From an uncultured Chloroflexia bacterium (GTDB lineage Bacteria; Chloroflexota; Dehalococcoidia; UBA2247; RBG-13-53-26): a stretch of 64,000 bases of DNA. The number at the start of each line of letters is the position of its first letter. Within the stretch, counting starts at the first letter, position 1. The notes under the pieces were generated by a model. It saw only the letters and a list, made by a program, of their open reading frames with translations, was not told where the DNA came from and did no database searches. Both the position numbers and the translations under genes were made by a program. Positions 6,645 to 57,870 of the stretch are shown here, piece after piece. Where the stretch lies: positions 4,594 through 68,593 of the forward strand of contig CAVRFM010000006.1 of the NCBI GenBank assembly GCA_963720375.1. The letters run 5' to 3'.

Positions 6645-6890
6645 ACGTCGCCCAGCCTTACCGAAGAGATCGGCACAAGGGAGTGGAGCACTGATTGAGA
6701 GCTCTATTGGGGTATCCTGGGTATTCCGCTGCGTCGCTGCAGCCAGTCTGGCAGGTATGGTGGTATTCAACGTGTTTATGCGGAGGATGTCCCGCTAGGA
6801 TCGCGTCAGGTCATTATCTGCTGATTCGCCAAGTTCCGTGAGTGCCAGGTCCCCGGAAGCTGTCTACTATGTCCACACTGTTGTCATTGC

Positions 6891-7950
6891 TGTAAGTGTT
6901 ACGTAATTCGAGGACAGAATTCAATGAATTGTGCCGGTGTTTTGCCTCCCAGTGCTTGATGCGGACGGTGGTGGTTATAGTAGACCAGGTACTGCATGAG
7001 CTCATCTTTGAATTGCTCGATCGAGTCAAAGGTTGTTTCATGCAAGAGATCCTCTTCAAGAGTTCTCCAAAAGCGCTCCACCTTGCCGTTGGCCTGAGGA
7101 CGATACGGTCGGGTGTAGCGGTGAGTAATGCCCAGTTCTGTGAGCATGCGTTCAAATGGATGCGAGGCCTTCTGCTTGGAATCGCGGGTGCCCACCTCAG
7201 GACCATTATCTGTGAGCACTTCTTTGAACCGGAGTGTATAGCGGTCAGCCAGGATGTTCAGACAGCGTAGAGCGGCAAACATCACAGTGAGTGCCTTGAT
7301 ATCATCGACCACCTCAGCCCAAGCCACGCGCGTGCAGGAGTCGATGACACAGACCAGGTAACGCCGCTTGCTCTCGTTCAGGACGAGGCATTTGGAGAGA
7401 TGATGGCAGTCGACATGTGCCAACTCCCCAGCTTTCTCCTTGATTATGGTGCGTTTGGCTTCTTTCATGACGGGTCGTAATCGGTTCAACCCCTGGCGCT
7501 TGAGGATGGTGTACACCCCTGATGGCGAGGGTGTCAACTCACCTAGCTTTGGCCTGAGGACACTCACGATCTCATAGCGGTTCATCCCCCTCTCGCGCAG
7601 TGTCCTGACCTGCTCCTCAACAAGGTCGGGAGCTCGGCGGGTTTTCCATTTGGGTCCCCGTTTACGCGGTAGCAGATCCTCCTCTTTCCCACTGTGAAGA
7701 TAGCGATTGTAATATTTGCGGAAGCTCCTCCGGTCTGTGTCGTGGAAGGCATAGAACTCCTGGGCAAAGCGAAACCGTGGGTGCTTCCCAGCCTTGACCA
7801 ATTCATACTCCCGAATCAGGAATCGGTACTTCTGAAGGTAGTTCCTCTTAATGGTCTCATCTTGACTGTTGTTCCTCATCGACGAAAAGCCTCCTTCCCA
7901 GCACATGCTGGTTAGTAGCATTTTCGTCCCCGAAATATGTAACATCTACA
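6891..7950 (-). mobile_element. IS481-family insertion sequence, copy 1 (1060 bp, TGT...ACA ends, 5-bp TSD ATTGC)
   Basis: Imperfect terminal IRs TGTAGATGTTACAT / TGTAAGTGTTACGT; ATTGC at 6886-6890 and 7951-7955. Confidence 0.9.
6899..7879 (-). CDS. IS481-family DDE transposase
   Basis: HVD..D..TDNGPE..HRYTRPYRPQANGKVERF..YN..RPHQALGGKTP; AGGAGG RBS before MRNNSQ. Confidence 0.92.
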   Translation of the reverse strand: MRNNSQDETIKRNYLQKYRFLIREYELVKAGKHPRFRFAQEFYAFHDTDRRSFRKYYNRYLHSGKEEDLLPRKRGPKWKTRRAPDLVEEQVRTLRERGMNRYEIVSVLRPKLGELTPSPSGVYTILKRQGLNRLRPVMKEAKRTIIKEKAGELAHVDCHHLSKCLVLNESKRRYLVCVIDSCTRVAWAEVVDDIKALTVMFAALRCLNILADRYTLRFKEVLTDNGPEVGTRDSKQKASHPFERMLTELGITHRYTRPYRPQANGKVERFWRTLEEDLLHETTFDSIEQFKDELMQYLVYYNHHRPHQALGGKTPAQFIEFCPRIT

Positions 7951-8042
7951 ATTGCGAGGAGGCCTTCATCAGAAGGACGACGAAGCAATCTCGGGGTGGT
8001 GCTTCTTCACCGGAAGCTGATTCTTATGCAGTCAAGAAGGGT

Positions 8043-8072: not shown

Positions 8073-8094
8073 TTCCCAAAATTGAATAAGAGAC

Positions 8095-8210
8095 GCAGGG
8101 GTGCCCCGACGGTGACTAGGGGCTTAATTGGGTAGCAAGTCCGGTGAGATTCCGGAGCAGGCCCGCCTGCTGTAACTCGCCTTAGGCGAGAAGCCAGAAC
8201 GCCCACCCCT
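8095..8210 (+). ncRNA. Cobalamin riboswitch
   Basis: GGTG..TTAATTGGG..TCCGGTGAGATTCCGGAGC..GCCCGC.TGCTGTAA..hairpin..AAGCCAGAACGCC, upstream of btuF/cob genes. Confidence 0.85.
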
Positions 8211-8335
8211 ATCCGTCCTGAAGCCTCCGCTGGGAAAGGGGGTGGGACTATGACCCGGGCACCGTGATAATCCCCTTGGCCTTCCGGACAAGGGGATTTA
8301 TTTTTTCCGGTTTCCAAGCTATTGAGGAGGTTCAA

Positions 8336-9250
8336 TTGAAGAGATTAATTTCTATTCTATTTTTATTTCTGTTGCTGCTTATAGCGCTTCCTGCATCGGC
8401 TTTGAGATGTGGCTCTGAGCCAACGGCCATCACTGCCGTGGACGATGCGTCGAGAGAGGTCCACATTGCACAAACGCCCCAGAGGGTGGTCTCTCTGGCA
8501 CCCAGCATCACGGAGATCCTCTTTGCTGCCGGTCTTGGCGATAAGGTGGTTGGCGTCACTGACGACTGCGACTACCCTGATGCAGCCAAGGCCAAGCCTA
8601 AAGTCGGCGGGTATTTCACTACCAGCCTGGAGGAGATCCTGGATAAGAACCCGGACCTCATCCTGACGGACGGCTATGATCCGGTGACGCAGCAGCTTGA
8701 GGGGTTGGACATCCCCGTGCTCGTTCTTCAGCCGAATGACATCGACGGTATCTTCAAGGACATCAATCTGGTGGGCAAGGTGATGAACAAGGAAAAGGAG
8801 GCAGCCAGTCTGGTGGACAGCCTCCAACAACGGCTGGACAAAGTGGCTGAAATTAAAGCCGGCGCAACCGGCAGTCCGACTGTGTTTTACGAAATAGATG
8901 CTACCGACCCGACCAAGCCCTGGACTGCAGGGCCGGGCTCGTTTGCGGATATCCTGATTTCCCTGGCGGGTGGCAGCAACATCGTCACGGGGGGCGGGAG
9001 CTGGCTGCAAATCAGCCTTGAGGACCTGCTCTCTGCCGACCCGGATATCATCATCCTGGGCGACTACCCCTATGTGACTCCGGAGCAGGTGGAGGCGAGA
9101 AGTGGCGTCTGGCAGGATCTGACGGCAGTCAAGCTGGGAAAGGTCTATGCAGTCAGCGACCCCAGCCTGACCAGCCGCCCCGGGCCCCGCATCATCGATG
9201 GGCTGGAGGAGATTGCCAGAATGATCCACCCTGAGTTGTTCCCTTCCTAG
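8336..9250 (+). CDS. btuF: Cobalamin ABC transporter substrate-binding protein
   Basis: QRVVSLAPSITEILFA, VGVTDDCDYP, SRPGPRIIDGLE; TTG start after GAGGAGG. Confidence 0.88.
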   Translation: MKRLISILFLFLLLLIALPASALRCGSEPTAITAVDDASREVHIAQTPQRVVSLAPSITEILFAAGLGDKVVGVTDDCDYPDAAKAKPKVGGYFTTSLEEILDKNPDLILTDGYDPVTQQLEGLDIPVLVLQPNDIDGIFKDINLVGKVMNKEKEAASLVDSLQQRLDKVAEIKAGATGSPTVFYEIDATDPTKPWTAGPGSFADILISLAGGSNIVTGGGSWLQISLEDLLSADPDIIILGDYPYVTPEQVEARSGVWQDLTAVKLGKVYAVSDPSLTSRPGPRIIDGLEEIARMIHPELFPS

Positions 9251-9277
9251 CTGACCATGAAAAGGGGAGTTGATGCG

Positions 9278-10357
9278 ATGAAAAGACAAAGTGAAGAAGT
9301 GATCCGGAATACGGTCAATGCCATAGCACCGCTGGATGAGGCAGCGATGGCGCAAGCCGGGGCCAGGCAGGACCAACTTACCAAACCGAGGGGAAGCCTG
9401 GGCAGGCTGGAGGAGCTGTCCATCCGGATGGCCGGCATCAGACGGGAGGCGGTACCACGCCTGGCCCGGAAGGTGATCATCACCATGGCCGGTGATCATG
9501 GTGTGGCCGCCGAGGGTGTAAGCGCCTACCCCCGGGAGGTAACGGCCCAGATGGTTTACAACTTCCTGCAGGGGGGTGCCGCCATAAATGTGCTGGCGCG
9601 CTGCATCGGAGCCAGGATCGTGGTGGTGGATATGGGGGTGGCAGCATCTCTGGCCCCTCATCCACAGCTGATCTTGAAGAAGGTGGGGCCCGGGACGGCC
9701 GATATGGCCAGAGGCCCGGCCATGAGCCGGGAGCAGGCGCTCCAGGCTATCCGGGCCGGCATCGAAGTGTTCGAGGAGGAACTCGGCAAAGGACTGGACA
9801 TCGTTGGCACCGGTGATATGGGCATCGGCAACACCACTCCCTCCAGTGCCATCTGCGCCGTTATAACCGGAGAGCCTGTGGAGGGTGTCACCGGCAGGGG
9901 AACCGGTGTGGATGACGTCCAGCTTTCCCATAAGATAGCGGTGATAAAACAGGCCATCCTGGTAAACCGCCCTGACCCCAAAGACCCGCTGGACGTGCTG
10001 AGCAAGGTGGGTGGCTTTGAGATCGGGGGGTTGGCCGGGGTCATGTTGGGTGCTGCAGCACACCGCATCCCGGTGGTCATCGATGGTTTCATCTCAGGGG
10101 CAGCCGCCCTGATCGCCACCGGGCTGTGCCCGGAGCTGAAAAACTATCTCATCGCCTCCCATGTCTCGGTAGAGGCGGGGCATCAGGCTATCCTCCGCCA
10201 TATGGGACTCAAGCCTTTGCTTGACCTGGACATGAGGCTGGGAGAGGGTACGGGTGCGGCGCTCGGCATCTTCCTGGCTGAAGCAGCCGCCAGGACGCTG
10301 GCGGAGATGGCTACCTTTGCCGAGGCCGGCGTCTCAGAGAAAGAGGAGAACGGCTAA
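9278..10357 (+). CDS. cobT: Nicotinate-nucleotide--dimethylbenzimidazole phosphoribosyltransferase
   Basis: [43 protein letters not shown]. Confidence 0.95.
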
Positions 10358-12636: not shown

Positions 12637-13203
12637 ATGGCTAAGAGATGTATTCTCATTCTGGGCGGGGCCCGGAGCGGCAAGAGCCGTTTTGCCCAGG
12701 AGATGGCGTCGCGCCTGGGTGAGAGGGTGCTCTTTGTGGCCACGGCGGAGGCCCTGGATGAGGAGATGAGACAGAGGATAGAGGAACACAAGAAGGCCCG
12801 TTCTTCAAGCTGGCGTACTATCGAGGCACCCTTCGGCGTGGGGCGAAGAATCCGGGAACAGAGTGGCGATGCCCAGGTGGTTGTCCTGGATTGCCTCACC
12901 CTGCTGGTGTCCAACGTCATTGGCCGGTGCGGCGGTGATCCTGACCGGATCGACACAAAGCTGGTGGATGAGAAGCTGTCATTGGAGGTCAGTGCATTGG
13001 CGGAGTGTATTGAGGACACAGCGGCCAGCTTTGTCCTGGTGAGTAACGAGGTGGGTATGGGGATTGTCCCGCCTAACAGGCTGGGACGGATCTACCAGGA
13101 CTCTCTGGGCAAGGTGAATCAGGAGTTGGCTCAGCGTGCCGACACTGTCTACCTCATGGTTGCCGGTATACCGGTGATGGTCAAAGGGCTGCAGGGCCTT
13201 TGA
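12637..13203 (+). CDS. cobU: Bifunctional adenosylcobinamide kinase / cobinamide-phosphate guanylyltransferase
   Basis: GGARSGKS, ATAEALDEEM..RI..H, LDCLTL, VSNEVGMGIVP. Confidence 0.95.
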   Translation: MAKRCILILGGARSGKSRFAQEMASRLGERVLFVATAEALDEEMRQRIEEHKKARSSSWRTIEAPFGVGRRIREQSGDAQVVVLDCLTLLVSNVIGRCGGDPDRIDTKLVDEKLSLEVSALAECIEDTAASFVLVSNEVGMGIVPPNRLGRIYQDSLGKVNQELAQRADTVYLMVAGIPVMVKGLQGL

Positions 13204-13716
13204 GGCCGGGAGGTATATCGAAGAAGGCGGACGCGACTCCTTGTGACAGGCGGTGGGTCTTCAGAACCGTGGTATGAGGAGAGGATGACAAAGCAAGAGG
13301 TCTGTCACCCTCGTAGGGATCAACAGTCAACAATTCCTGGGGCGAATGCTAGTGTTTTCGTTTCCTTGTGACTTCACCTATAACTATCATCCCAACAGTC
13401 GCTGCTACGAAGCCTAAGAGAACATACCATCCAAGCATGGACCCTCCTCTGCCTTTTCTAAATCATACCACAATTGCCCTTCATGTTTGAAGTGGCGAAT
13501 TGAGAGACCTAGCACAAGCCCACATGGCCCTCTAATCATCTCTACGCAACGTACTATCAATAGAGTGATTAGTTTGGTTCTGCTAAATTAAGGTTGATGA
13601 TGATTGACGGGGGCCAATCGGGAAGATCCTCGGAGAACCCTCGTTCACTACATCGGTGTCACTCTTTGACAGGATGAATGAATCATGCTATATGTTGTGT
13701 CGGTGCTTGAGGTGAA

Positions 13717-14559
13717 ATGACGGATATCATCGTTGCCGTGGTTGGCATAGCCGTTACAATCGTATTGGCTTGTTTTTTCTATTGGAAGCAGCGCGCTGCG
13801 AAAGAGCCACGTTGGGCGATCCGCACCAATAATCTGGTAGCTGACTGGAAGGAGAGACTACCTCGCCTTGCTATCCTCTACGAAGGAAAGCCTGTCAGTA
13901 GTCTGTCTGTGAGCAGGGTGGTGTTCTGGAATGCTGGCAGATGCTCAATAAGGAAGGAAGATATAGCGCCAGCGGATCGGCTGAGGATACAGTGCAAGAA
14001 GGATGTGCGTATTCTGAGCGTAAGTCTCATCGAGTCCAACAGCCCACCTAGCCGAATGTCATATAATTTGGAGCCTGACGATGCGGCAGTCACGCTAGAA
14101 TTTGACTTTCTTGAGAAAGAGGAAGGGGCGGTGTTCGAAGTCGTGCACACAGGGACCAGCTCTGACGATATCCGAGTCGCTGGCACAATAATCGATGGTG
14201 GGCAGCCAAAGTTTCAGGACGTGAGGGTCCCCAAATTCAGAGGTTTTATGGCAGTGCTCGTTCGGAACTTTCATAAGCTTGCCCTTAAGATCGGAAGGTC
14301 TCAGGCTATTGTGCTAGGCTTTCTTGTTGGTTTGGTTATGCTAGCGACTGGAGTGACGATCTTCATCACTGGGTTGCATCGCATCCCAGAGGGTCGATTA
14401 TCAGTGTCTCTGGTAAGGGTAATTGTATTATATGCTCTAGCAATGTTAGCGACTGTCCCCACGAGCCTCGCACTCGGGTACTCGTTGTACGGGCTTCCCC
14501 CAAGAGGACTACAGTCTTTCTTGGGGAAAATCCCCTATGAAGGCGATGACGAGTCTTGA
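13717..14559 (+). CDS. Hypothetical membrane protein (first cargo of the array)
   Basis: 280-aa ORF with an N-terminal and two C-terminal TM segments; TTGACA-N17-TATATG upstream. Confidence 0.7.
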   Translation: MTDIIVAVVGIAVTIVLACFFYWKQRAAKEPRWAIRTNNLVADWKERLPRLAILYEGKPVSSLSVSRVVFWNAGRCSIRKEDIAPADRLRIQCKKDVRILSVSLIESNSPPSRMSYNLEPDDAAVTLEFDFLEKEEGAVFEVVHTGTSSDDIRVAGTIIDGGQPKFQDVRVPKFRGFMAVLVRNFHKLALKIGRSQAIVLGFLVGLVMLATGVTIFITGLHRIPEGRLSVSLVRVIVLYALAMLATVPTSLALGYSLYGLPPRGLQSFLGKIPYEGDDES

Positions 14560-14700
14560 GTCATAGTTGCAAGCCTCTGTGTTTGTAATAGCCACGGCCT
14601 TGTAGAACTTCAGGCTATCCCCTTTCTATCCAGGCTGAGGTTGGGTGGTATAATCGTTGAGAGCCAATCATTTTTGACAAGGACATCGGCAGGAATAGTT

Positions 14701-15018
14701 ATGGAGACCGCAGTCACTGTATTCTCGGTTGTTTGGTGTCTCGTGGTTCTTTTCTTCATATATCGCATGTGGAAAGCCCACGAATTGAGGATTGGCATAA
14801 TGAACGATGACCTTGATACCTATATGAGGCTGCCCTCCTATGGTGAGATGGTCTTCAAGTTCTGGAGACCGTGGTCCTCGTTCATCGAGGAGACTCTAGA
14901 GGGCACCCCGGAAGAAGAAGCAACATCGCTTGATACCAGGCAGACGGACGAGGTGATTGTCCCCGGTGAGCACGACCCCGAATCTCCTTCAGGGGCCTTC
15001 CTCAACTCTCAACCCTGA
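14701..15018 (+). CDS. Small hypothetical protein with an N-terminal TM helix and acidic tail
   Basis: ATG 14701 follows a site and TATAAT; lies between two full sites. Confidence 0.6.
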   Translation: METAVTVFSVVWCLVVLFFIYRMWKAHELRIGIMNDDLDTYMRLPSYGEMVFKFWRPWSSFIEETLEGTPEEEATSLDTRQTDEVIVPGEHDPESPSGAFLNSQP

Positions 15019-15172
15019 TAAAGCCAACGGGCAAGGCTTAGTAGAAAGACCTCACCCCACCATCGCCTTGTAGGACTTCAGGCTGTCTCCCCTTTGTATC
15101 CAGGCTGAGGTTCGGATGGTATAATGTCGCAGAGGATTCCAGCCTAATAAACAGAGGCAGGCGAATTTGGAG

Positions 15173-15367
15173 ATGGCTATCATGAGCACCTTTCGGATTC
15201 TCAAGAAAGCGGCAAGAGACATCTATAAGTGGCTAATGAAATACAGCGGCATGACAATGATCATAGATAACGTGGAAGAAAGACGCCGTAAACGAGAAAG
15301 CCTCAATCATTCTGAAGAGCCTTCCGATACCCAATCTACTGCAGACCCTCCATTAAAAGGTAAATAG
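15173..15367 (+). CDS. Small hypothetical protein
   Basis: ORF follows a site and TATAAT; no recognised motif. Confidence 0.4.
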   Translation: MAIMSTFRILKKAARDIYKWLMKYSGMTMIIDNVEERRRKRESLNHSEEPSDTQSTADPPLKGK

Positions 15368-15423
15368 GCTCATTACTGCACAGGGTTAGTAAATTTCACC
15401 TGGACCAGTTCTCGGAGGGCAGG

Positions 15424-16881
15424 TCAATTTCCCTGTTCATCCTCTTTGATGCCAGCCAGGCTCTTCGCTGTTTTCTGCTTACTCTTAATGTCGACCAGGC
15501 GGGATATCATGATCCTCTGTGCCTGTGGCGAACCGGCACCGTGCATGGATTCAGTAAGATATCCTACTGCTGCAGTACCGAGTGTTATATTTTCGATAAG
15601 CCGGAGGATACGCATCCTGTTTTCCGTTGGGATATCGTCCCTCCCTTTGCAATATTTTCTTATCCACTCGCCTACGTCTGCTGATCTCATATCCTCTTCA
15701 GAGGGGAGGGTAACCAGGAGACCGCCTGCGATATCCTGCGCAAGCCTGGCTATTTCATAAGGGAACCGTGTCACATTCTGTTTGTGTACATTTGCGAGGA
15801 GCGTATTAACGTAGTAAGTGCCGCTGGGCTCAGGGTGCCCTTCAGAGGCGCAGGCAATACATCCGCAGTAGAGCGTTTCATTAAGATGATTCATCTCGAT
15901 GATTTTATCTTTCACGTGGGAAGCCTTTTCGATACCATTGTATTCTGCAATCGTCTGTGTCGCGCCTATGAGAACATCGCCGACTCCGACCTTGCAGGCA
16001 TAGCTTTGCCGGTGATACGAGGCGAATTGCTCCACCAGCTGGCCGGAAAAGTCATATTCCTTGTACATGAATACCCGCTCCCATGGAACGAAGACATCAT
16101 TAAATATTATCAACGCTTCGTGTCCTCCGAAATTGATGTTGCCTCGATCGATTTTGCACCCTTCCAGCTTCCTGGTATCGCATGACTGGCGTCCTATGAC
16201 ATAGATTATACCTTTGGTGTCGCTAGGCACAGCAAAGGAAACCGCGTAATCCTTGTCCTCTTCCCTCATGGAAATCGTGGGCATTACAATGACCTCATGG
16301 GAATTCACAGCCCCCGTCTGATGGGCTTTGGCCCCGCGTACCACAATACCGTCCTTTCTTTCTTCGACTACCCTGAGGTACTGGTCAGGATCGGCCTGCT
16401 TGTGCGGCGGCAGGGAACGGTCGCCCTTTGGATCAGTCATGGCTCCGTCGCAGACAAGATCGTTCTCCTGGACATACTCCAGATACTTTAAGAATCTTTT
16501 GTTGTATTCAGTACCGTACTTTGCGTCTATGTCATATGTTGTCATTGACAGGGCATTCAAGGCGTCAATTCCCACGCATCTCTGGAAACAGCATCCTGTC
16601 AGGGAACCAAGCAGCCTGCCCATCTTGCTTTTCTTGACAAGGTCATCAACGCTTTGATGAATATGGGTGAACCGGTTGATTTTTGCCCCTGTGATGTGGG
16701 AAGTCGCTGTCATAATATCTTCATATTTCGGATTACGAGCAAGGGCATAAGTCATGGAAATCGCATTCAGGGATGGTCTGATTATGGGATCATCCACGAC
16801 ATTTTTCACTCTTTTGCCGAACATGTATACTACCAGTTCGAGCTTTCTCAAACTTTCGATGTATTCTTGCGGAGTTTTCAT
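15424..16881 (-). CDS. abfD: 4-hydroxybutyryl-CoA dehydratase (HpaB/AbfD family)
   Basis: CFQRCVG Fe-S motif, DGAMTDPKGDRS, VRGAKAHQTG, YHRQSY, MHGAGSPQAQ. Confidence 0.9.
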   Translation of the reverse strand: MKTPQEYIESLRKLELVVYMFGKRVKNVVDDPIIRPSLNAISMTYALARNPKYEDIMTATSHITGAKINRFTHIHQSVDDLVKKSKMGRLLGSLTGCCFQRCVGIDALNALSMTTYDIDAKYGTEYNKRFLKYLEYVQENDLVCDGAMTDPKGDRSLPPHKQADPDQYLRVVEERKDGIVVRGAKAHQTGAVNSHEVIVMPTISMREEDKDYAVSFAVPSDTKGIIYVIGRQSCDTRKLEGCKIDRGNINFGGHEALIIFNDVFVPWERVFMYKEYDFSGQLVEQFASYHRQSYACKVGVGDVLIGATQTIAEYNGIEKASHVKDKIIEMNHLNETLYCGCIACASEGHPEPSGTYYVNTLLANVHKQNVTRFPYEIARLAQDIAGGLLVTLPSEEDMRSADVGEWIRKYCKGRDDIPTENRMRILRLIENITLGTAAVGYLTESMHGAGSPQAQRIMISRLVDIKSKQKTAKSLAGIKEDEQGN

Positions 16882-17188
16882 AAATCTTTTACTCTCCTTC
16901 GATAAATCTTTCTCCATAATTCAATGCCGCGTTGACCTGCCCCAAGTATTTGTACCACTTCTTAGGCCGCAGTTGCCAGCCTCCTCTGTGTTTGTAACAG
17001 CCACCGCCTTGTAGGACTTCAGGCTGTCCTCACCAATAGAGTGGACAGAGATGTCCAGCCTTGTCTTTTCTTCAGTATCAGCCAACCCCTTTTGTATCCA
17101 AGCTGAGGTTGTGGGTGTATCATGTCACTGAAGGCAATCTGCTGATGGTACTTCCGCTGCTAAATGGAAGGTAGAAAGGGGCTTTGCT

Positions 17189-17407
17189 ATGGCGAAGGGA
17201 ACAATCAAGAAACTAATTAGAGACAAGGGCTATGGGTTCATCCAAACTGAGGAGGGGAAAGAGCTTTTCTTTCACCGGAATCAGCTTCAAGGTGTGGACT
17301 ATTCTTCTCTCAAGGAAGGCCAAGAGGTAGAATACGAGGCTGGCACTGGGCGTGGTGACCGCCCAGAGGCTACCAAGGTGAAGCTACCACAACCCAAGAC
17401 TGAATAG
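17189..17407 (+). CDS. Cold-shock domain protein
   Basis: KGYGFI..LFFH RNP motifs. Confidence 0.9.
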   Translation: MAKGTIKKLIRDKGYGFIQTEEGKELFFHRNQLQGVDYSSLKEGQEVEYEAGTGRGDRPEATKVKLPQPKTE

Positions 17408-17521
17408 CACTCACCCCACCAGTGCTTTGTAGAACTTCAGACTGCCCGAGATAGTTTTGTGGTATAATGTCTCCATGGTGATTTTCCTATGAGAATTACT
17501 TCTGCGTGTACTTGAGGGTAA

Positions 17522-17665
17522 ATGGCTGCCAAAGGTGTTGTCCACCAAGCCCACCACTGGATGATAGACACTCTGCCTAAGAACGGCTTGTACCACGCCA
17601 TGTGCAGGAAGTGCGGCGCAGAAAAGGATTTTCCCCAGAGGAGCCTCGCTTCAGATTCAGTATAG
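17522..17665 (+). CDS. Small His/Cys-rich protein (possible Zn ribbon), 47 aa
   Basis: Manual translation MAAKGVVHQAHHWMIDTLPKNGLYHAMCRKCGAEKDFPQRSLASDSV; GAGGG RBS; fills a cassette. Confidence 0.55.
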   Translation: MAAKGVVHQAHHWMIDTLPKNGLYHAMCRKCGAEKDFPQRSLASDSV

Positions 17666-17943
17666 ATAGAAAGCCAGTTGCACCATCAGCCATAGAACCA
17701 CCTGACTTGAGTGGCACTTCTGTACATGATAGATGTGCCTGAGCCAGGCTCGTCCCAAGTCCCCTAGCGGTATCACTACAGGAACCCTGGGACAAGCCTT
17801 AACCTCCAGCATCACCCCGGCAGCACCCTGTAGAACTTCAGCCTGTCCTCATTGGTTGACATTCTCTATTGCCTGTGTGCTATTATCCTAGATGACTTCT
17901 ACATATAGGTATGTATAGAGTCGGAAGCAGGAAGGAGAGTGGC

Positions 17944-18090
17944 ATGGTCAAGAAGAGAGTGCGCAACCCGGTTACTCACAAATACTATGCCCAGCAGCAA
18001 AGGGATGGGAGACTGAGACGAGGTCAGTTCGTCGGTCTCTGGCATCCTCCCAAGAGAAAACCAAAGGAGGCCCAGATTCCGCAGGCTTAG
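17944..18090 (+). CDS. Small basic hypothetical protein, 48 aa
   Basis: MVKKRVRNPVTHKYYAQQQRDGRLRRGQFVGLWHPPKRKPKEAQIPQA; AAGGAG RBS; TTGACA...TATTAT upstream. Confidence 0.6.
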   Translation: MVKKRVRNPVTHKYYAQQQRDGRLRRGQFVGLWHPPKRKPKEAQIPQA

Positions 18091-18211
18091 GCCGCAATTC
18101 TCCCTACAGTCCTCTACTAAGCTATCTTTCCATCAAAGCTGAGGTTGGGGTGGTACAATGGTGGCAGGCGGGTCACACCAAGGAGAAGGTGCGGGAAGAA
18201 ATGGAGGACAG

Positions 18212-18712
18212 ATGGATAGCATCCTGGACGTGATTGTCTCACGAAGAAGTGTCAGGAAGTGGAAATCCGATGCGGTCTCTGATGGCGACATCAAGGACAT
18301 ACTCGAAGCGGCGATGAATGCCCCATCGGCGGTGAATGAGCAAGCATGGCAGTTCGTGGTGCTGAACGGTAAGATGCTCGAAGACTTTGTGAAAATCAAC
18401 GGCAATACTCCCAAAGGCTCACCCGTGGGGATCCTGGTTTGCGGCGACAAGAAGCTGGACAAGCTCGGGGGATTCTATCTGCATGACTGTTGTGCTGCCA
18501 CGCAGAACATTCTTCTCGCGGTTCATGCTAAAGGACTGGGAGGAGTCTGGACTGCCATCTTCCCCAACGCTATTCCGGAAGTGCGCAAGCTGCTGAATCT
18601 GCCGGACCACGTCATCCCACTCGCCTTCGTTCCTTTTGGATACCCCGTCTCAGAGCGGCCCAAACCGGCCAGCCGATACGACGAAACGAAGGTGCACAGA
18701 AACGGCTGGTAG
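18212..18712 (+). CDS. Nitroreductase family protein
   Basis: SRRSVRKW, APSAVNEQAW, QNILLA..GLGGVW; GGAGG RBS. Confidence 0.9.
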   Translation: MDSILDVIVSRRSVRKWKSDAVSDGDIKDILEAAMNAPSAVNEQAWQFVVLNGKMLEDFVKINGNTPKGSPVGILVCGDKKLDKLGGFYLHDCCAATQNILLAVHAKGLGGVWTAIFPNAIPEVRKLLNLPDHVIPLAFVPFGYPVSERPKPASRYDETKVHRNGW

Positions 18713-19417
18713 GCTCTCCAGGTGCGGTGCTTAGCAGGACTTCAGGCTGTCCTGACCAATACCTTTCTGGAACTCTGAAACCATGCACATTATGTCCATA
18801 TCTACCAACCATCAACCTTTCCCCAAACGTCATGCTCGTGCATAGTAAACTTGACAGGTCTATGCAGGCATGTTACAATCACACCACGATATTCGTAGTG
18901 CGATGGGATATCCACTCCCACCCAACAAACAAAAGGAGGGAGGAGAAAGACAAGATCTGGAATACGGAAGGCTGCGGATATCCATTCACAGGAAGAGCAG
19001 CCTACTAACTAGATGGCTGGCAGTCAGTTCAATTTTATTGAAAGGGGGGTGAACATGACTCCGGGGTGTGAGTCGTGTTGCTGACTGACCAGCCATCCTT
19101 ATTTAGTTCAGATACATCAGAGCAAAATCTACGACTACGCGCTGCCATGCTTAGAGGATAAACCCGTTTGGACACCATCGCCTTGTAGAACTTCAGCCTG
19201 TCCTCCTTTCTGTCCAAGCTGAGGTTGTCTGACACAAAACTCCATGTAAGATAACTTCCCTGACAGCAAGCATTTACTGTGCCTTTACCATTCTTGTGCT
19301 AAGGTATACACAGGCGAGCAGATGGGGTCGATTGATGAAGCGGGTCGCAGATAGAACGAAGTCCCTGACAGGCTGTGCATACCTGATCAAGGGCCACAAA
19401 TAACATAGGAGGGCAAC

Positions 19418-19534
19418 ATGCGGCATGCACGTGAAGGTATGGGCTGGTGGGTAGGGTTGATGATCGGCATAGTGACGTTTCTTGTCTGGGCAGGGTCTAC
19501 TGAGCTAGTTGTCCGGGTTATCCCACACTTGTGA
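19418..19534 (+). CDS. 38-aa single-TM ORF, truncated relative of the SHOCT gene
   Basis: GGAGGG RBS; MRHAREGMGWWVGLMIG...; decayed SHOCT-coding sequence follows the stop. Confidence 0.4.
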   Translation: MRHAREGMGWWVGLMIGIVTFLVWAGSTELVVRVIPHL

Positions 19535-19984
19535 ACCACGGTGACTCAGGATCAGCGGGCAGGGGAAATGGTGCTTTGACAATAGCTAGAGGAACGCTAC
19601 GCCCGAAGAGAGATCACCAAGGAAGAATTCGACCGGATCAAGAAAGGTCTGTCATAGAGCACTACGAGGTATTGGAAACGCCTTAGAAAGACTCCCCCCA
19701 CGTCCTTTCTAAGCCAGAGAAGCCCATCTGTGAAGGTGGGCTTCTTCTATTCCCTGAATCCCAAACCCACCATCGCCCTGTAGAACTTCAGGCTGTCCTG
19801 AAAAACTCTAATCATTTTCTAAGCATCTCCTAATCCGGATTTAATGCAAGACCGGATGCCCTTCGGTAGAATGAAAGTGTCTTTGAGAGGTTATCCCCCT
19901 TTCTGAAGTGCCAAGTGACAGAAGTCGCATACCTTGTATCGATAGGGTAATACAATATTGGAATGGTGCAGAGGAGGTGTAGAC

Positions 19985-20233
19985 ATGATGTGGGAGCATT
20001 GGCATGAAGGTGTAGGTGCCTGCGGTGGTTGGGGTGTAGGATGGATTATTGGTCTATTCTTTCTGGCAGTCGTCGTTGGACTGATTACTTGGGGCATTGT
20101 GGTACTGGTAAGACACGGTAGATCAGGATCAGCGGGCAGGGGAAATGGTGCTTTGGCCATAGCCAGAGAACGCTATGCCCGAGGAGAGGTCTCCAAAGAA
20201 GAATTCGACCGGATCAAGAAAGACCTGTCGTAG
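19985..20233 (+). CDS. TM plus SHOCT-domain protein
   Basis: ALAIARERYARGEVSKEEFDRIKKDL; GGAGG RBS; hairpin terminator near 20257-20282. Confidence 0.85.
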   Translation: MMWEHWHEGVGACGGWGVGWIIGLFFLAVVVGLITWGIVVLVRHGRSGSAGRGNGALAIARERYARGEVSKEEFDRIKKDLS

Positions 20234-20508
20234 TTCACTCTGAAGCATGTCACCGAAGCCCATCTGCATAAGGTGGGCTTTCGTCATCTCCGTCTCCCCA
20301 GCACCGCCTTGTATGACTTCAGGTTGTCCTGAAAAACTCTAATCATCTTCTAAGCATTTTCCAATCCAGACCTAAGCTTAGCCCGGTATGCTGAGGGTGG
20401 CTTTGAGGAGAAGGAGAAGACACAGTGAAACAGACCGGCAAACTGGAACAGCAAGAGGCGTATCAGAGCATCATCAAGGGCCACAAATAACAAGACCAGG
20501 AGGGCAAC

Positions 20509-20622
20509 ATGCGACATGAAAGCGGAGGTATGGGTTGGTGGGTGGGCTTGACGATCGGTATAGTGACGTTTCTTATCTGGGCAGGGTCTACGGCGCTGAT
20601 TGTCCGGGTTATCGGACGCTAG
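20509..20622 (+). CDS. 37-aa single-TM ORF, paralog of 19418..19534
   Basis: MRHESGGMGWWVGLTIGIVTFLIWAGSTALIVRVIGR; GGAGGG RBS. Confidence 0.4.
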   Translation: MRHESGGMGWWVGLTIGIVTFLIWAGSTALIVRVIGR

Positions 20623-20757
20623 TGAACCATGGTGACTCAGGATCAGCAGGCTGAGGTTGGGGGTGTATGGTGTATAATAGTGCAAGGTGCGATGGCACGG
20701 GCCGCGCATGGATGCAGCCGATGGCGTGGATAAGCTGATGCCCGTGAGGAGGTAGAC

Positions 20758-21072
20758 ATGAAGGACCATCCCCACTGCTATCATATCAACTTCGCTCATG
20801 AGACAGAGACATGCTGCTGGTGCTCTGACATACGCAAGCTCAAATTCGGGCAGGGTCACCTTGACCGTGACGTTGGCATGACGATTCCGCTAGTGAGCGT
20901 CTGGTGGTGGCGGTATAATCCCAAAATGTATGCCTTGTACGAGCACGTCAAGCAGTTTGGCACACCTGAGACCGCGCATGGACCGTATGGCATCCAAGAT
21001 GGTTTGTTTGTCGAGTACGCTGACGAAGACCTATGCTCGATGAGAAAGCAACCTTTGGAAGGAGTACCTTAG
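20758..21072 (+). CDS. Hypothetical protein
   Basis: GAGGAGG RBS; lies between sites; no recognised family. Confidence 0.6.
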   Translation: MKDHPHCYHINFAHETETCCWCSDIRKLKFGQGHLDRDVGMTIPLVSVWWWRYNPKMYALYEHVKQFGTPETAHGPYGIQDGLFVEYADEDLCSMRKQPLEGVP

Positions 21073-21255
21073 GAGACTCAGGAGAAGCCGAAGACGTCAA
21101 AGCAGTCCTTTTACCTCACCCCACCAGCGCCTTGTAGAACCTCACGCTGTCTCCTCCTTCTGTGTCCAGGCTGAAGTTGACACCCTCCGTCGCATCGTGA
21201 TACTGTCCGTTGGGGCTCCCACCCTGCGGCCCAAGAATCGATACACGGGGTTTTC

Positions 21256-22128
21256 ATGAGAATAATCGCCACCTGGTACGGCACAGCAGCGCTTCACCTC
21301 GTCGCGGAAGATAGTCTGGGGATCTTCTTCGATCCCTGGTTTGAAAGGCCCCTGAATGCCAGGCCCAGGATCGTGGCTGATCCCAGGAACATCAAGCTGG
21401 AGCCACTCGACGTGATCTTTGTGAGCCACAGTCACTTCGACCATGTTTACAACCTGCCGGACTTAGTACAACGCTACCCTGCTGTCCATGCCTACGTGCC
21501 GGCACTGACGGCTGAGAATTGCCGGAAGCTGTCCAGTGGGGCGATCTTCAAGGACCACGTCTGCAAATTGTCAGAAAATGACTGGGAACGCGTCCACACC
21601 GTTGCAGCGGGAGACCACGCAGAGCTCTCATCCCGGGATGGCAGTGTTCGGTTGCGGGCCACGGCCATAAAATCGGGCCATGTGAGGTTTGATGTCTATT
21701 CTGTCCTTCGCGTGCTCTTCAACTACAGAGTGATCCGGGGATTCGCATACTATGCGAAGTTCCTTCTTGGATTCCCCGCGAAGGATGTGCTGGGCTGGGA
21801 ACTGCAACTGGAGACTGCCAGGGAATCCAGGCGCATCGTGTTCTTCGGCAGTCTCTGCAGGCAATACTCCCATATCCTGCTGCAATATGCCGGCTGTGAT
21901 TGTCTTGTTCTCCCTCTAGCCGGAAGGAGAAATATCCTACCGTACGCCAGCATAGTGACGGGAGTCTTACGGCCCAAGGCGGTAATCCCGGTGCACCATG
22001 ATGATTTCTTCCCTCCGATCTCCTATCCCGTTGACTACCGCAACTACTCGAAGTGGCTCAAGGAGAATTTCCCCGGGACAAGGCTGATTGAATTGCAGCC
22101 CGAACAACCAACGAGTTTCTTGATGTGA
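21256..22128 (+). CDS. MBL-fold metallo-hydrolase (UlaG-like)
   Basis: FFDPW, SHSHFDH, IPVHHDDFF. Confidence 0.85.
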   Translation: MRIIATWYGTAALHLVAEDSLGIFFDPWFERPLNARPRIVADPRNIKLEPLDVIFVSHSHFDHVYNLPDLVQRYPAVHAYVPALTAENCRKLSSGAIFKDHVCKLSENDWERVHTVAAGDHAELSSRDGSVRLRATAIKSGHVRFDVYSVLRVLFNYRVIRGFAYYAKFLLGFPAKDVLGWELQLETARESRRIVFFGSLCRQYSHILLQYAGCDCLVLPLAGRRNILPYASIVTGVLRPKAVIPVHHDDFFPPISYPVDYRNYSKWLKENFPGTRLIELQPEQPTSFLM

Positions 22129-22194
22129 ACCGGCTGCAAAGCGCCTACAGCCAATCGGCCTGCTGGCAAGGGGGCAGACAGTGGGACCAGACCT

Positions 22195-47407: not shown

Positions 47408-48467
47408 TGTAGATGTTACATATTTCGGGGACGAAAATGCTACTAACCAGCATGTGCTGGGAAGGAGGCTTTTCGTCGATGAGGAACAACAGTCAAGATG
47501 AGACCATTAAGAGGAACTACCTTCAGAAGTACCGATTCCTGATTCGGGAGTATGAATTGGTCAAGGCTGGGAAGCACCCACGGTTTCGCTTTGCCCAGGA
47601 GTTCTATGCCTTCCACGACACAGACCGGAGGAGCTTCCGCAAATATTACAATCGCTATCTTCACAGTGGGAAAGAGGAGGATCTGCTACCGCGTAAACGG
47701 GGACCCAAATGGAAAACCCGCCGAGCTCCCGACCTTGTTGAGGAGCAGGTCAGGACACTGCGCGAGAGGGGGATGAACCGCTATGAGATCGTGAGTGTCC
47801 TCAGGCCAAAGCTAGGTGAGTTGACACCCTCGCCATCAGGGGTGTACACCATCCTCAAGCGCCAGGGGTTGAACCGATTACGACCCGTCATGAAAGAAGC
47901 CAAACGCACCATAATCAAGGAGAAAGCTGGGGAGTTGGCACATGTCGACTGCCATCATCTCTCCAAATGCCTCGTCCTGAACGAGAGCAAGCGGCGTTAC
48001 CTGGTCTGTGTCATCGACTCCTGCACGCGCGTGGCTTGGGCTGAGGTGGTCGATGATATCAAGGCACTCACTGTGATGTTTGCCGCTCTACGCTGTCTGA
48101 ACATCCTGGCTGACCGCTATACACTCCGGTTCAAAGAAGTGCTCACAGATAATGGTCCTGAGGTGGGCACCCGCGATTCCAAGCAGAAGGCCTCGCATCC
48201 ATTTGAACGCATGCTCACAGAACTGGGCATTACTCACCGCTACACCCGACCGTATCGTCCTCAGGCCAACGGCAAGGTGGAGCGCTTTTGGAGAACTCTT
48301 GAAGAGGATCTCTTGCATGAAACAACCTTTGACTCGATCGAGCAATTCAAAGATGAGCTCATGCAGTACCTGGTCTACTATAACCACCACCGTCCGCATC
48401 AAGCACTGGGAGGCAAAACACCGGCACAATTCATTGAATTCTGTCCTCGAATTACGTAACACTTACA
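47408..48467 (+). mobile_element. IS481-family insertion sequence, copy 2 (1060 bp, TSD GCAAT)
   Basis: Matches copy 1 in the opposite orientation; GCAAT at 47403-47407 and 48468-48472. Confidence 0.9.
47479..48459 (+). CDS. IS481-family DDE transposase
   Basis: Same translation as copy 1. It reads on the + strand although the ORF track labels it minus. Confidence 0.92.
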   Translation: MRNNSQDETIKRNYLQKYRFLIREYELVKAGKHPRFRFAQEFYAFHDTDRRSFRKYYNRYLHSGKEEDLLPRKRGPKWKTRRAPDLVEEQVRTLRERGMNRYEIVSVLRPKLGELTPSPSGVYTILKRQGLNRLRPVMKEAKRTIIKEKAGELAHVDCHHLSKCLVLNESKRRYLVCVIDSCTRVAWAEVVDDIKALTVMFAALRCLNILADRYTLRFKEVLTDNGPEVGTRDSKQKASHPFERMLTELGITHRYTRPYRPQANGKVERFWRTLEEDLLHETTFDSIEQFKDELMQYLVYYNHHRPHQALGGKTPAQFIEFCPRIT

Positions 48468-56894: not shown

Positions 56895-56927
56895 CGCAGC
56901 AGAGCAAGACTGAGGATATGCGTTCCA

Positions 56928-56966
56928 AACCTCAGCCCCCGAAATCGGGGGCTGAGGTTTTTCTAT
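56928..56966 (+). terminator. Rho-independent terminator
   Basis: AAACCTCAGCCCCCGA-AA-TCGGGGGCTGAGGTTT followed by a T-run. Confidence 0.75.
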
Positions 56967-57003
56967 ATACGGCAGAACACTGACGAAACAGCAGGCAACT
57001 GTG

Positions 57004-57813
57004 CTATGCGGCCCTCAGGAAGGCGAGTACCTCCCGGTTGAACCTGCCGCTCATCTCGAAGTTCCAAGCATGCGATCCGCCCTGCACCATGACCAGCCGG
57101 GCATTCGGTATTGTGCTTGCCATGACCTCGGACTGGTGAGGCGAGATAATCTTGTCCTCAGTGCCGGTGATGACCAGGGTAGGGGCTTTGATCAGATGCA
57201 GCCTGTCGAGGCGGTCGTGGTCTGAGATGGCCTCAAGCTGTTTCAAGAAGCCCTCTGCGCTGGCTGATTTGATATAACCCCTGGCGAGGAAGGGCATCAG
57301 CCACCGGTAGAGCCTCTTATTGAAGGACAGGGATATCATGGCTTTCGTCGACCTGGTGACATCGACCTGACGGATATCGAGCTTGTCAGAGGCATCCCTG
57401 AGGCCAAAGGCCTTCATCATTTCGGGATGCATGTCATTGGGATCGCCCTTGCCGGGATCTGTGCTGGCCAGGATGAGCTTCTTAACCCTCTCCGGGTGGT
57501 TGATGGCGATCTCCTGGGCGATCATGCCTCCCAGGGATAACCCCAGAATATGGGCTTTGTCAATGCCGAGGTGGTCCATCAGGCCGACGGCATCCTCTGC
57601 CATCGTCTTCAAATCCCAGGGCTGCTCGGGGATATCCGTTCTACCAACGCCCCGGCTGTCGAAGGTAATCACCCGGTAGTGCTTCCGGAAGGCGGGAAGC
57701 TGGCGGAACCAGGTGCTGTGGTCTGCCCCGAGACCGGTGACCAGAACCAGGGGCTCGCCCTGACCATGAACCTGATAATAGATATTGATGCCATTCACAC
57801 TCGCCCTGGGCAT
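57004..57813 (-). CDS. Alpha/beta hydrolase (enol-lactonase-like)
   Basis: FDSRGVGRT, GLSLGG nucleophile elbow, PTLVITGTED, GGSH. Confidence 0.9.
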   Translation of the reverse strand: MPRASVNGINIYYQVHGQGEPLVLVTGLGADHSTWFRQLPAFRKHYRVITFDSRGVGRTDIPEQPWDLKTMAEDAVGLMDHLGIDKAHILGLSLGGMIAQEIAINHPERVKKLILASTDPGKGDPNDMHPEMMKAFGLRDASDKLDIRQVDVTRSTKAMISLSFNKRLYRWLMPFLARGYIKSASAEGFLKQLEAISDHDRLDRLHLIKAPTLVITGTEDKIISPHQSEVMASTIPNARLVMVQGGSHAWNFEMSGRFNREVLAFLRAA

Positions 57814-57870
57814 GCTCACCACCCTCCAGATTGAACATCTCCCATAGCCACCTCAGTAGGGGTGTCTGTG

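Follow-up and report, generated by a model that had tools for sequence, protein, structure and literature searches.

A Dehalococcoidia-like Chloroflexota chromosome carries small, self-promoted genes stacked one behind another, with one conserved site of ~60 bases between them. The window (the whole stretch of 64 kb that was analyzed) contains 10 left arms and 7 right arms of this site, in a single orientation at 14.6 to 21.2 kb, and none elsewhere. The site has two parts: a left half, CACCCCACCAGCGCCTT-GTAGAACTTCAGGCTGTC, made up of an element termed U (CACCCCACCAGCGCCTT) and, 3' of U, the left arm; and a right half made up of a C/T tract, GTA-TCCAAGCTGAGGTTG, and a promoter. The features are listed below (L numbers denote the loci compared; L116 is the same chromosomal locus in a related strain, with a cob operon 94% identical to that of the window).

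13460..14579, +: proximal end of the variable region; L116 (94%) and contigs of runs X2/X3 are homologous only up to 13459/13460
13717-14559, +: 280-aa membrane protein gene with its own TTGACA/TATATG promoter, no 5' site, and no Pfam match
14580..14656, +: site 1, full (U, GTAGAACTTCAGGCTATC, CCCTTTCTA, TCCAGGCTGAGGTTG, and GGTGGTATAAT); covariance model score 72 bits, E 8e-18
14657..15047, +: membrane protein cassette, 125 aa (about 105 aa from the ATG at 14702); same cassette in L116 at 9013-9478
15048..15127, +: site 2, full; 85.5 bits
15128..16988: cassette or cassettes with a 66-aa ORF (15167-15367, +) and an HpaB/4-hydroxybutyryl-CoA dehydratase-family gene (15424-16917, -; Pfam HpaB_N and HpaB); metagenome contigs jump from 15081 to 17086
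16989..17125, +: site 3, split into a left half (16989-17028), a 58-nt insert containing a terminator hairpin (17042-17057), and a right half (17087-17111) with TATCAT
17126..17406, +: cold-shock (CSD) cassette, gene at 17189-17407; Pfam CSD
17407..17470, +: site 4, left half joined to CGAGATAG-TTTTGTGGTATAAT, the spacer lost together with the right arm's 5' portion; this junction type recurs in L127, there after the 104-aa cassette
17471..17807, +: 47-aa ORF cassette (17522-17665); also L119 and L127
17808..17872, +: site 5, left half joined to a CTCATTGG-TTGACA...TATTAT promoter
17873..18094, +: 59-aa ORF cassette (17911-18090)
18095..18161, +: site 6, degenerate left arm (CTACTAAGCTATC) with TCAAAGCTGAGGTTG and GGTGGTACAAT
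18162..18714, +: nitroreductase cassette (ORF 18158-18712); Pfam Nitroreductase
18715..18751, +: site 7, left half only, joined to CTGACCAATACC; this junction type recurs in L128 behind a different gene
18752..19162, +: cassette without a clear ORF; promoter TTGACA-17-TACAAT at 18851-18879
19163..19240, +: site 8, full; 71.3 bits
19241..20644, +: three paralogous SHOCT cassettes (Pfam SHOCT; repeats D4, D6, D8, and D9), the first copy frameshifted (19418-19686), the second intact (19958-20233), and the third truncated (20509-20640)
19758-19809 and 20289-20340, +: sites 9 and 10, left half only, between the SHOCT cassettes
20645..20659, +: site 11, right arm that lost its 5' part to a deletion reaching into the SHOCT gene
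20660..21111, +: 104-aa ORF cassette (20758-21072); 22 homologues, every one on short environmental contigs
21112..21193, +: site 12, full; 65.1 bits; the GTTGACA of its arm is the -35 box of the next promoter
21194..22171, +: MBL-fold hydrolase cassette (21256-22128); L144 and X2/X3 are homologous as far as 22171, inside a terminator hairpin; four different preceding neighbors across other contigs

The sequence-only reading had described 12 elements in one orientation between 14590 and 21180. All 12 are present on the + strand and an array does lie there, but the variable region extends more widely, from about 13460 to 22171, and takes in the 280-aa membrane protein gene and the MBL-fold gene. 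Arms that had been described as standing alone were found at their positions, but several are decay products: the supposed right-only site at 18136 has a degenerate left arm upstream, those called left-only at 17433 and 17834 still carry a promoter and the right arm's 3' remnant, and the right arm at 20648 was truncated through an ordinary deletion into the SHOCT gene. The array was correctly suspected to be richer in AT than its flanks (GC content of 0.47 to 0.53 versus 0.55 to 0.63). With ≤3 mismatches allowed, the left arm GTAGAACTTCAGGCTGTC has 10 matches in the window, all within 14602-21151, while shuffled sequences average 0.07 (0 of 100 reach 10). Seven true copies of the right arm TCCAGGCTGAGGTTG lie in the array region, against 2.6 chance matches expected window-wide. 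A covariance model scan, as had been proposed, here with a model of 48 independent sites run over the whole window with filters off, gave significant matches only at 14580-21193; the site is absent from the remaining 57 kb.

The arms lie 14 to 20 nt apart, and the spacer is hypervariable in sequence as well as variable in length. Across the 48 sites, T24, A25, and G26 never vary and G23 reaches ≥90% conservation, directly 5' of a stem of only 8 to 11 bp with a loop of 20 to 25 nt. Pairing is restricted to AACTTCAG/CTGAGGTT plus 2 bp, and two G.T positions favor the top strand, not the bottom strand. The initial view of the two arms as one hairpin site did not hold, as no covariation between arms was found, most copies fold no better than shuffled sequences, and the two halves belong to different cassettes. 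A -10-like box follows 43 of 91 distinct right arms, in agreement with the TATAAT-like sequences first noticed just after the site, and 20 of the 91 form a TTGAC -35 box at two different registers. Because the arm sits at two registers relative to promoters, promoter function alone is insufficient to explain it. Most cassettes bring their own promoter. Hairpin GGTGGGCAGAGATGTCCACC, U, arms, and promoter, in this order, make up a conserved inter-cassette module of 60 to 130 nt whose copies are 80 to 94% alike in BLAST matches, so that homologous recombination could contribute to shuffling.

With this array included, 121 sites were found in 50 loci (45 metagenome contigs, one Dehalococcoidia MAG, and the window), and 116 of the 121 follow the majority orientation within their own locus. 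The metagenome material consisted of assembled contigs, among which no circular intermediate was seen. Intervals between sites (n = 66) have a median length of 598 nt, and their longest ORF is co-oriented with the sites in 46 cases and opposite in 19. Their content is hyperdiverse: 174 ORFs fall into 152 families, including VOC, SnoaL, alpha/beta hydrolase, methyltransferases, Mrr, DNA methylase, and AAA_15. Recurrence of arrays with other gene content, which had been suggested as a test, is borne out by about 150 other gene families elsewhere. Most matching contigs are 1 to 5 kb long and end near a site; the arrays account for the poor assembly of these regions from metagenomes.

Gene order and content differ at the same locus in the related strain, consistent with the mobile cassettes originally proposed. 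L116 has the order 127aa...NTR-CSD-104aa, with unique cassettes in addition, and the window has 125aa...CSD...NTR...104aa; the nitroreductase cassette therefore precedes the CSD cassette in L116 and follows it in the window. Further orders occur in L119, L127, and L144. The CSD cassette is found in at least eight other contexts, among them beside purF in L140 and L150. Deletions alone cannot have given rise to the orders in L116, L119, L127, and L144. It is this presence of the same genes in altered order in related strains that makes the behavior integron-like.

Within each site, the left half (U and left arm) is linked to the upstream gene and the right half, with the promoter, to the downstream gene. 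The junctions fall within a C-rich tract that follows the left arm immediately on its 3' side, and not at G|TT, where attC recombines; numerous metagenome contigs show joins at these points. Unusual junction types (CGAGATAG, CTGAAAAACTC, and CTGACCAATACC) occur after three or four different upstream cassettes, always directly 3' of GCTGTC, where every left-half-only junction also breaks. Junctions to unrelated DNA repeatedly use the same nucleotide in several independent cassette families. Exceptions occur (in L116 after CACCCCACC and at 20645 within the right arm), and some junctions are plain deletions between C runs; since the spacer is also hypervariable, the crossover can be localized only to ≤10 nt.

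Searches of the window, where the lack of an integrase had first been noted, and of the array-bearing loci (~260 kb) yielded no tyrosine, serine, or HUH recombinase, and a six-frame search found neither IntI nor an intI pseudogene. The suggested check for a neighboring tyrosine recombinase was negative at all 50 loci, and the sole integrase match, a fragment in L118 without the IntI-specific insertion, is a tRNA-linked relic. About 260 kb of loci contained no tblastn match to E. coli RayT.

Integrons and many CALINs have been reported, Chloroflexi included (PMC4889954), and the arrays resemble them in architecture and in their co-oriented short cassettes (median about 0.6 kb) of one or two unrelated, hyperdiverse small genes. 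Sites are also homogeneous within one array, as in sedentary chromosomal integrons, with inverted arms bounded by AAC...GTT; order and content vary between close strains, no integrase adjoins the arrays, and GTTGGGT fits GTTRRRY in many copies. An ordinary CALIN (an attC cluster lacking an integrase), with unusually short attC sites and IntI encoded elsewhere in the genome, is nevertheless improbable. The consensus is GTAGAAC...GTTGGGT or GTTGACA, in which only AAC and GTT pair and the R' consensus fits class A copies only; GTAGAAC is unlike RYYYAAC and not complementary to GTTGGGT. The second (L''/L') box pair is absent, GCTGTCC and TCCAAGC not being complementary, and comparison with attC aadA1, to which the covariance model gives no match, puts the paired stretch at the position of the unpaired spacer of attC. 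The distance from AAC to GTT is about 37 to 45 nt, as estimated from alignment columns and spacer lengths, and, by a count on the alignment, the putative R boxes span about 45 to 51 nt from outer end to outer end, below the attC length range. attC sites measure 57 to 141 nt, 57 nt being the known minimum. The strand favored by the G.T positions, the crossover at the 5' arm of a site split between adjoining cassettes rather than at G|TT with the whole site following the upstream ORF, the promoters of most cassettes, and the lack of IntI in window and loci likewise differ from integrons. A site shorter than canonical attC and separate from it, as first suggested, agrees with this comparison of boxes, length, and crossover position; Rfam gave no match to the site.

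A slightly better, though still unlikely, explanation is a passive intergenic module (terminator, spacer, promoter, or MITE/REP-like) that spread in the lineage, with shuffling as a by-product of homologous or slipped recombination and no dedicated recombinase. The conserved unit of up to about 130 nt from hairpin through promoter, the deletions between C runs, the failure to find a recombinase in the window or loci, the match of the arms to a terminator stem, and the REP-like pairing of a GTAG tag with a palindrome would all suit it, whereas junctions to unrelated DNA at one nucleotide in independent families, about 150 unrelated genes with identical ends, confinement of sites to arrays of almost always one orientation per locus, and the lack of terminal inverted repeats at unit ends and of target duplications argue against it. 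The arm sequence, AAC(C/T)TCAGSC/GSCTGAGGTT, equals the stem of a normal terminator at 56913-56985, but the site differs from an intrinsic terminator in its long loop and lack of a T tail, and metatranscriptome contigs run across sites. A MITE was considered and rejected, the inverted arms being offset by 2 versus 12 nt from the cassette ends, with no target duplications seen. REP/BIME elements combine a GTAG tag with an imperfect palindrome, and their RAYTs are HUH Y1 transposases (PMC3733652). The present site similarly has an invariant unpaired TAG, usually GTAG, just 5' of an imperfect palindrome, with G.T mismatches compatible with one strand only, but differs in its stem and loop lengths, in bounding genes in arrays, and in showing neither high-copy dispersal nor head-to-head pairs. 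The REP-like scatter named at the outset as an alternative is not matched by one array in 64 kb. A regulon, with the motif serving a single regulator as operator or promoter element, was the other alternative then named and is most improbable. The right half does lie immediately upstream of, or overlap, promoter boxes, but left halves lie at gene 3' ends, the arm has two registers, and the genes are unrelated, many of them tiny or broken; the variation in order and content among L116, L119, L127, and L144 already contradicts it. Acinetobacter plasmids contain pdif (Xer) modules, which, like dif-integrating elements, are gene units flanked by a short site and moved by host XerC/D; the dif core is 28 bp, with two 11-bp arms around 6 bp, and pdif orientation alternates. 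Discrete gene modules, a short conserved site, and a recombinase encoded elsewhere are points of likeness, whereas the present sites lack an 11-6-11 dif-like core, are all direct, and form chromosomal arrays in Chloroflexota.

The reading favored here, with a probability of roughly 0.55, is an integron-like chromosomal array of mobile cassettes with a new bipartite, sequence-conserved site and a recombinase not encoded beside the array. Each cassette begins with a C/T tract and GTA-TCCAAGCTGAGGTTG, continues with a promoter of its own, one or two genes and often a terminator, and finishes in CACCCCACCAGCGCCTT-GTAGAACTTCAGGCTGTC; co-oriented arrays occur at several chromosomal loci. A trans-acting site-specific enzyme would cut at the C-rich core and free a cassette, probably circularized by the joining of its left half to its own right half, and the released cassette would then enter another site at that site's core. 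When a cassette inserts instead at a short C-rich secondary site, half-sites could result and new arrays could be seeded, and later deletions would erode sites. More tentatively, and at less than even odds, the arrays may represent an independent, integrase-less class of gene capture in Dehalococcoidia-like Chloroflexota, with promoter-carrying cassettes and a GTAG-tagged site foldable on one strand and broken at the 5' side of the loop. The break-point geometry fits a single-strand (HUH/rolling-circle-like) or other trans-acting enzyme better than IntI. The fold-capable strand has leading-strand composition and therefore would be the lagging-strand template.

Apart from integrons, no well-understood system is known to stack and reshuffle single genes, and every known integron relies on IntI and structured attC sites. 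The candidate differs through its site, its self-expressed cassettes, and a recombinase acting from elsewhere, and the compact ~60-nt site could serve as a recombination tool. If it is indeed a second system, gene-cassette capture evolved more than once, and an abundant uncultured lineage of sediment, peat, and wetland would hold a large hidden pool of mobile genes, defense genes included.

Copies of the left arm of the site (GTAGAACTTCAGGCTGTC) with ≤3 mismatches number 10, all of them + strand and confined to 14602-21151 (0.07 expected), and seven real copies of the right arm (TCCAGGCTGAGGTTG) lie within the same stretch. A covariance model of the site (R1), built from 48 independent sites and run unfiltered over all 64 kb, gave significant matches only within 14580-21193. 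The sequence-only reading of this region was accurate in its site coordinates, which direct reading and a repeat scan reproduced, in its gene descriptions (cold-shock, nitroreductase, SHOCT, and HpaB/AbfD family), and in describing the array as more AT rich than its flanks (GC, 0.47-0.53 versus 0.55-0.63). A transmembrane and SHOCT cassette is present as three tandem paralogues at 19241-20644 (frameshifted, intact, and truncated), which shows duplication and decay within the array. No Rfam RNA family matched the site at the gathering threshold or up to an E value of 1. The site was also considered as a coding relic, its minus strand reading ...NLSLDxKGDSLKFYKALVG before a stop, but the frame shifts between copies and no gene continues it. 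One borderline R1 match, at 56913-56985 (-), is a perfect terminator hairpin (AACCTCAGCCCCCG-ATTT-CGGGGGCTGAGGTT) whose stem sequence is that of the cassette-site arms, and the site may be derived from a terminator of this kind. Beside it, an alpha/beta hydrolase gene (57004-57822, -) has homologues within cassettes of two other contigs, L118 and L157.

The left flank of the array holds a cobalamin-salvage operon preceded by a cobalamin riboswitch, the right flank holds genes for an MBL-fold protein, a cyclophilin, an SDR, YchF, and others, and the remainder of the window contains sensor kinases and housekeeping genes. Mobile-element proteins in the window are limited to an rve-type IS transposase, present in two copies whose Pfam scores are identical.

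6899-7945, - strand, rve-type IS transposase, copy 1
8082-8224, cobalamin riboswitch (Rfam RF00174, 38.4 bits)
downstream of the riboswitch, ending at 13203, btuF-like/cobT/cobC/cobU salvage operon
47413-48459, + strand, rve-type IS transposase, copy 2

The first IS copy (~6800-7996) is inserted between Ig-like surface protein genes and the riboswitch and is not in the syntenic contig L116, which represents the same chromosomal locus in a related strain. The last element of the syntenic flank is an open reading frame (ORF) that has a GGAGG ribosome-binding site and encodes a conserved membrane peptide of 29 aa (13360-13450, -). All compared strains diverge directly upstream of it, at 13459/13460, after a tract (CCTCCTCTGCCTTTTCTA) like the spacer between the arms. 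YchF relatives bear the names Chloroflexi or Dehalococcoidia, and a ychF relative with 78% identity was set aside for its different synteny. Exact-protein look-ups with the window proteins found nothing on record, NCBIfam gave no match to the window's unknown proteins, and a 347-aa neighbor protein appeared by eye to be AttH/CrtC-like and not recombinase-like.

The cob operon of L116 is 94% identical to that of the window up to position 13460, beyond which L116 carries an AAA_15 gene and others not in the window. Four cassettes are common to both (91 to 94% identity), in the order 127aa...NTR-CSD-104aa in L116 and 125aa...CSD...NTR...104aa in the window (CSD, cold-shock; NTR, nitroreductase). 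Other contigs have the orders CSD-47aa-SHOCT-MBL (L119), CSD-104aa-MBL (L144), and 104aa-47aa (L127), and the CSD cassette lies beside purF in L140 and L150, with one extra cassette there in L150. Contigs of four peat and freshwater metagenomes contain many joints with ends at sites, and all leave homology with the window at 13459. These orders, contexts, and joints show translocation of site-bounded units, and the strain and contig comparisons exclude a fixed operon. The prospect that the motif marks a regulon, with the same genes kept in the same order in related genomes, is contradicted by the different order and content at the same locus in L116; given such translocation, we regard a regulon as highly improbable.

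A full-site pattern search retrieved 45 metagenome contigs, and a left-arm search found, among the matches listed, five contigs of the Dehalococcoidia MAG JBGOWL01. An 18-mer scan of genome contigs gave mostly chance matches, those listed that were real being the JBGOWL01 contigs and a few Dehalococcoidia half-sites; viral contigs held only single half-sites. In total, 121 sites were collected in 50 loci, and 116 share the orientation that predominates in their locus. Together with the single array that R1 found in the 64 kb of the window, this runs counter to a REP-like scatter in both orientations. The median length of the 66 intersite intervals is 598 nt (interquartile range, 459 to 984 nt), and the longest ORF is co-oriented with the sites in 46 and opposite in 19. 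ORFs of at least 100 aa number 174 and represent 152 families, and the identified cassette genes are small enzymes and defense-type genes (VOC, SnoaL, alpha/beta hydrolases, methyltransferases, DNA methylase, Mrr, AAA_15/AAA_21 ATPase, and zinc-ribbon proteins). Arrays occupy several chromosomal places, since they adjoin dnaK, groEL, purF, and the cob operon. Right halves also occur head to head (CAACCTCAGCTTGGA...TCCAAGCTGAGGTT) and tail to tail (L154, 2480-2535; L144, 1700-1745), and therefore inversions or convergent arrays exist. A stretch (CTCAACCCTGATAAAGCCAACGG) at 14963-15034 recurs at the 3' termini of cassette genes that are not related to one another (L115, 1997-2060; L117). SnoaL cassettes read it as ...LSTLIKPTGKVQA, and the 125-aa gene uses a different frame; this sharing suggests chimeric cassette tails.

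Aligned sites have the consensus ...ACCCCACCA-CGCCTT GTAGAACTTCAGGCTGTC, a C/T tract ending in GTA (the spacer), TCCAAGCTGAGGTTG, and a promoter, with a conserved CACCCCACCAGCGCCTT (U) 5' of the left arm. The extended -10 form of the promoter, GGTGGTATAAT, accounts for 43 of 91 distinct right arms, and a second form, in which GTTGACA serves as -35 with TATTGT ~17 nt on, accounts for 20; conservation of the arm thus holds in two promoter registers. In a third class of cassette start, the position immediately 3' of the right arm is taken by a conserved leader instead of a promoter box. A terminator hairpin (GGTGGGCAGAGATGTCCACC) often lies 5' of the left half and, with its T-rich tail, is a third, recurrent conserved module of the intercassette region.

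L128, L138, L152, L153, and L118, leader GACTCTACTACAACCAGTGAG
window 17042-17075, GGTGGGCAGAGATGTCCACC hairpin and T-rich tail
L040 65-100, the same module
L038 3315-3350, the same module
L116 6440-6470, the same module
L161 7815-7840, the same module

In pairs of sites that have just one neighboring cassette in common, either upstream or downstream, U and mostly the left arm track the upstream cassette, the promoter tracks the downstream cassette, and the spacer is variable whichever cassette is shared. The C/T tract is retained in every true right-only site, and left-only sites all end directly after GCTGTC(C). Each of three odd junction types is found behind three or four distinct upstream cassettes.

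GTC joined to CGAGATAG..TTTTGTGGTATAAT, 47-aa cassette
GTC joined to CTGAAAAACTC, SHOCT cassette
GTC joined to CTGACCAATACC, third type

Linkage, half-site ends, and odd junctions together place the exchange point at a short, C-rich core immediately beyond the 3' end of the left arm and not at G|TT of the right arm. Hypervariability of the spacer limits its resolution to this core, short of the exact nucleotide. Plain decay accounts for some junctions, namely, deletions from the C run of U to that of the spacer, the arm truncation at 20645, and, in L116, an insertion after CACCCCACC.

The arms can pair (AACTTCAG/CTGAGGTT plus 2 bp), with 82% of alignment cells paired. The site alignment contains no covariation or compensatory change between the arms, and folding energies were no better than those of shuffles on either strand (z-scores, -2.2 to +0.7), save for one copy. 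Two G.T positions fit the + strand only (T30.G65, in 45 of 48 sites, and a G27 variant), and a hairpin structure is thus neither supported nor excluded. Recognition of the arms by a sequence-specific protein is at least as likely as recognition of structure.

As the sequence-only reading held, no integrase was found in the window: its proteins have no Phage_integrase, resolvase, or Y1 transposase match, and six-frame searches with IntI1, TnpR (from R100), and Escherichia coli RayT were negative. Target-site repeats of tRNA or tmRNA genes, as in Dehalococcoides ssrA islands, were rejected, as the window has neither gene. The expectation that arrays recur beside a tyrosine recombinase was not borne out, the sole recombinase-like sequence near any array being at L118 1445-1923 (-). 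This is a frameshifted, N-truncated, phage-type tyrosine integrase beside a tRNA, 41% identical to the IntI1 C terminus and without the IntI insertion. The layout at L118 1290-1923 runs from dnaK through the tRNA and the integrase remnant to an abutting truncated alpha/beta-hydrolase cassette and the first site. Relic integrases lie at the same tRNA in L163 to L165. The L118 sequence was discarded as the enzyme of the arrays, its homologues being tRNA-linked relics in housekeeping contexts with no sites.

Function and array layout match those of integrons and of attC clusters lacking an integrase (CALINs) (PMC4889954), and the array might accordingly be read as an IntI-dependent CALIN with aberrant attC sites. 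Judged by its sequence, however, the site fails the attC definition: R'' departs from RYYYAAC and lacks complementarity to R', the L''/L' pair is not present, attC aadA1 is unpaired where the paired part of this site falls, the site is shorter than the known attC minimum, its crossover position is unsuitable, and, unlike integron cassettes, those described here carry promoters. R1 did not match attC aadA1, and with the negative IntI1 search of the window, a CALIN seems doubtful. A passive terminator-promoter repeat, shuffled through homologous recombination, is unlikely too, if slightly less so. REPs tagged with GTAG are cleaved by RAYT (PMC3733652), and the present site resembles them in having an invariant TAG, in most cases as GTAG, at the 5' base of its palindrome; its distribution is not REP-like, and tblastn of ~260 kb found no E. 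coli RayT homologue. No dif-like core, MITE end, or Rfam family fits the site. We found no account of such arrays in Dehalococcoidia in the literature, which is weak evidence of novelty given incomplete coverage.

The observation itself is real and widespread. In the reading that we favor, with a probability of roughly 0.55, a putative recombinase acting in trans would exchange self-promoted cassettes site specifically at a new bipartite site. A more novel and less probable reading is a single-strand, HUH-like mechanism, which would cut on the loop's 5' side.
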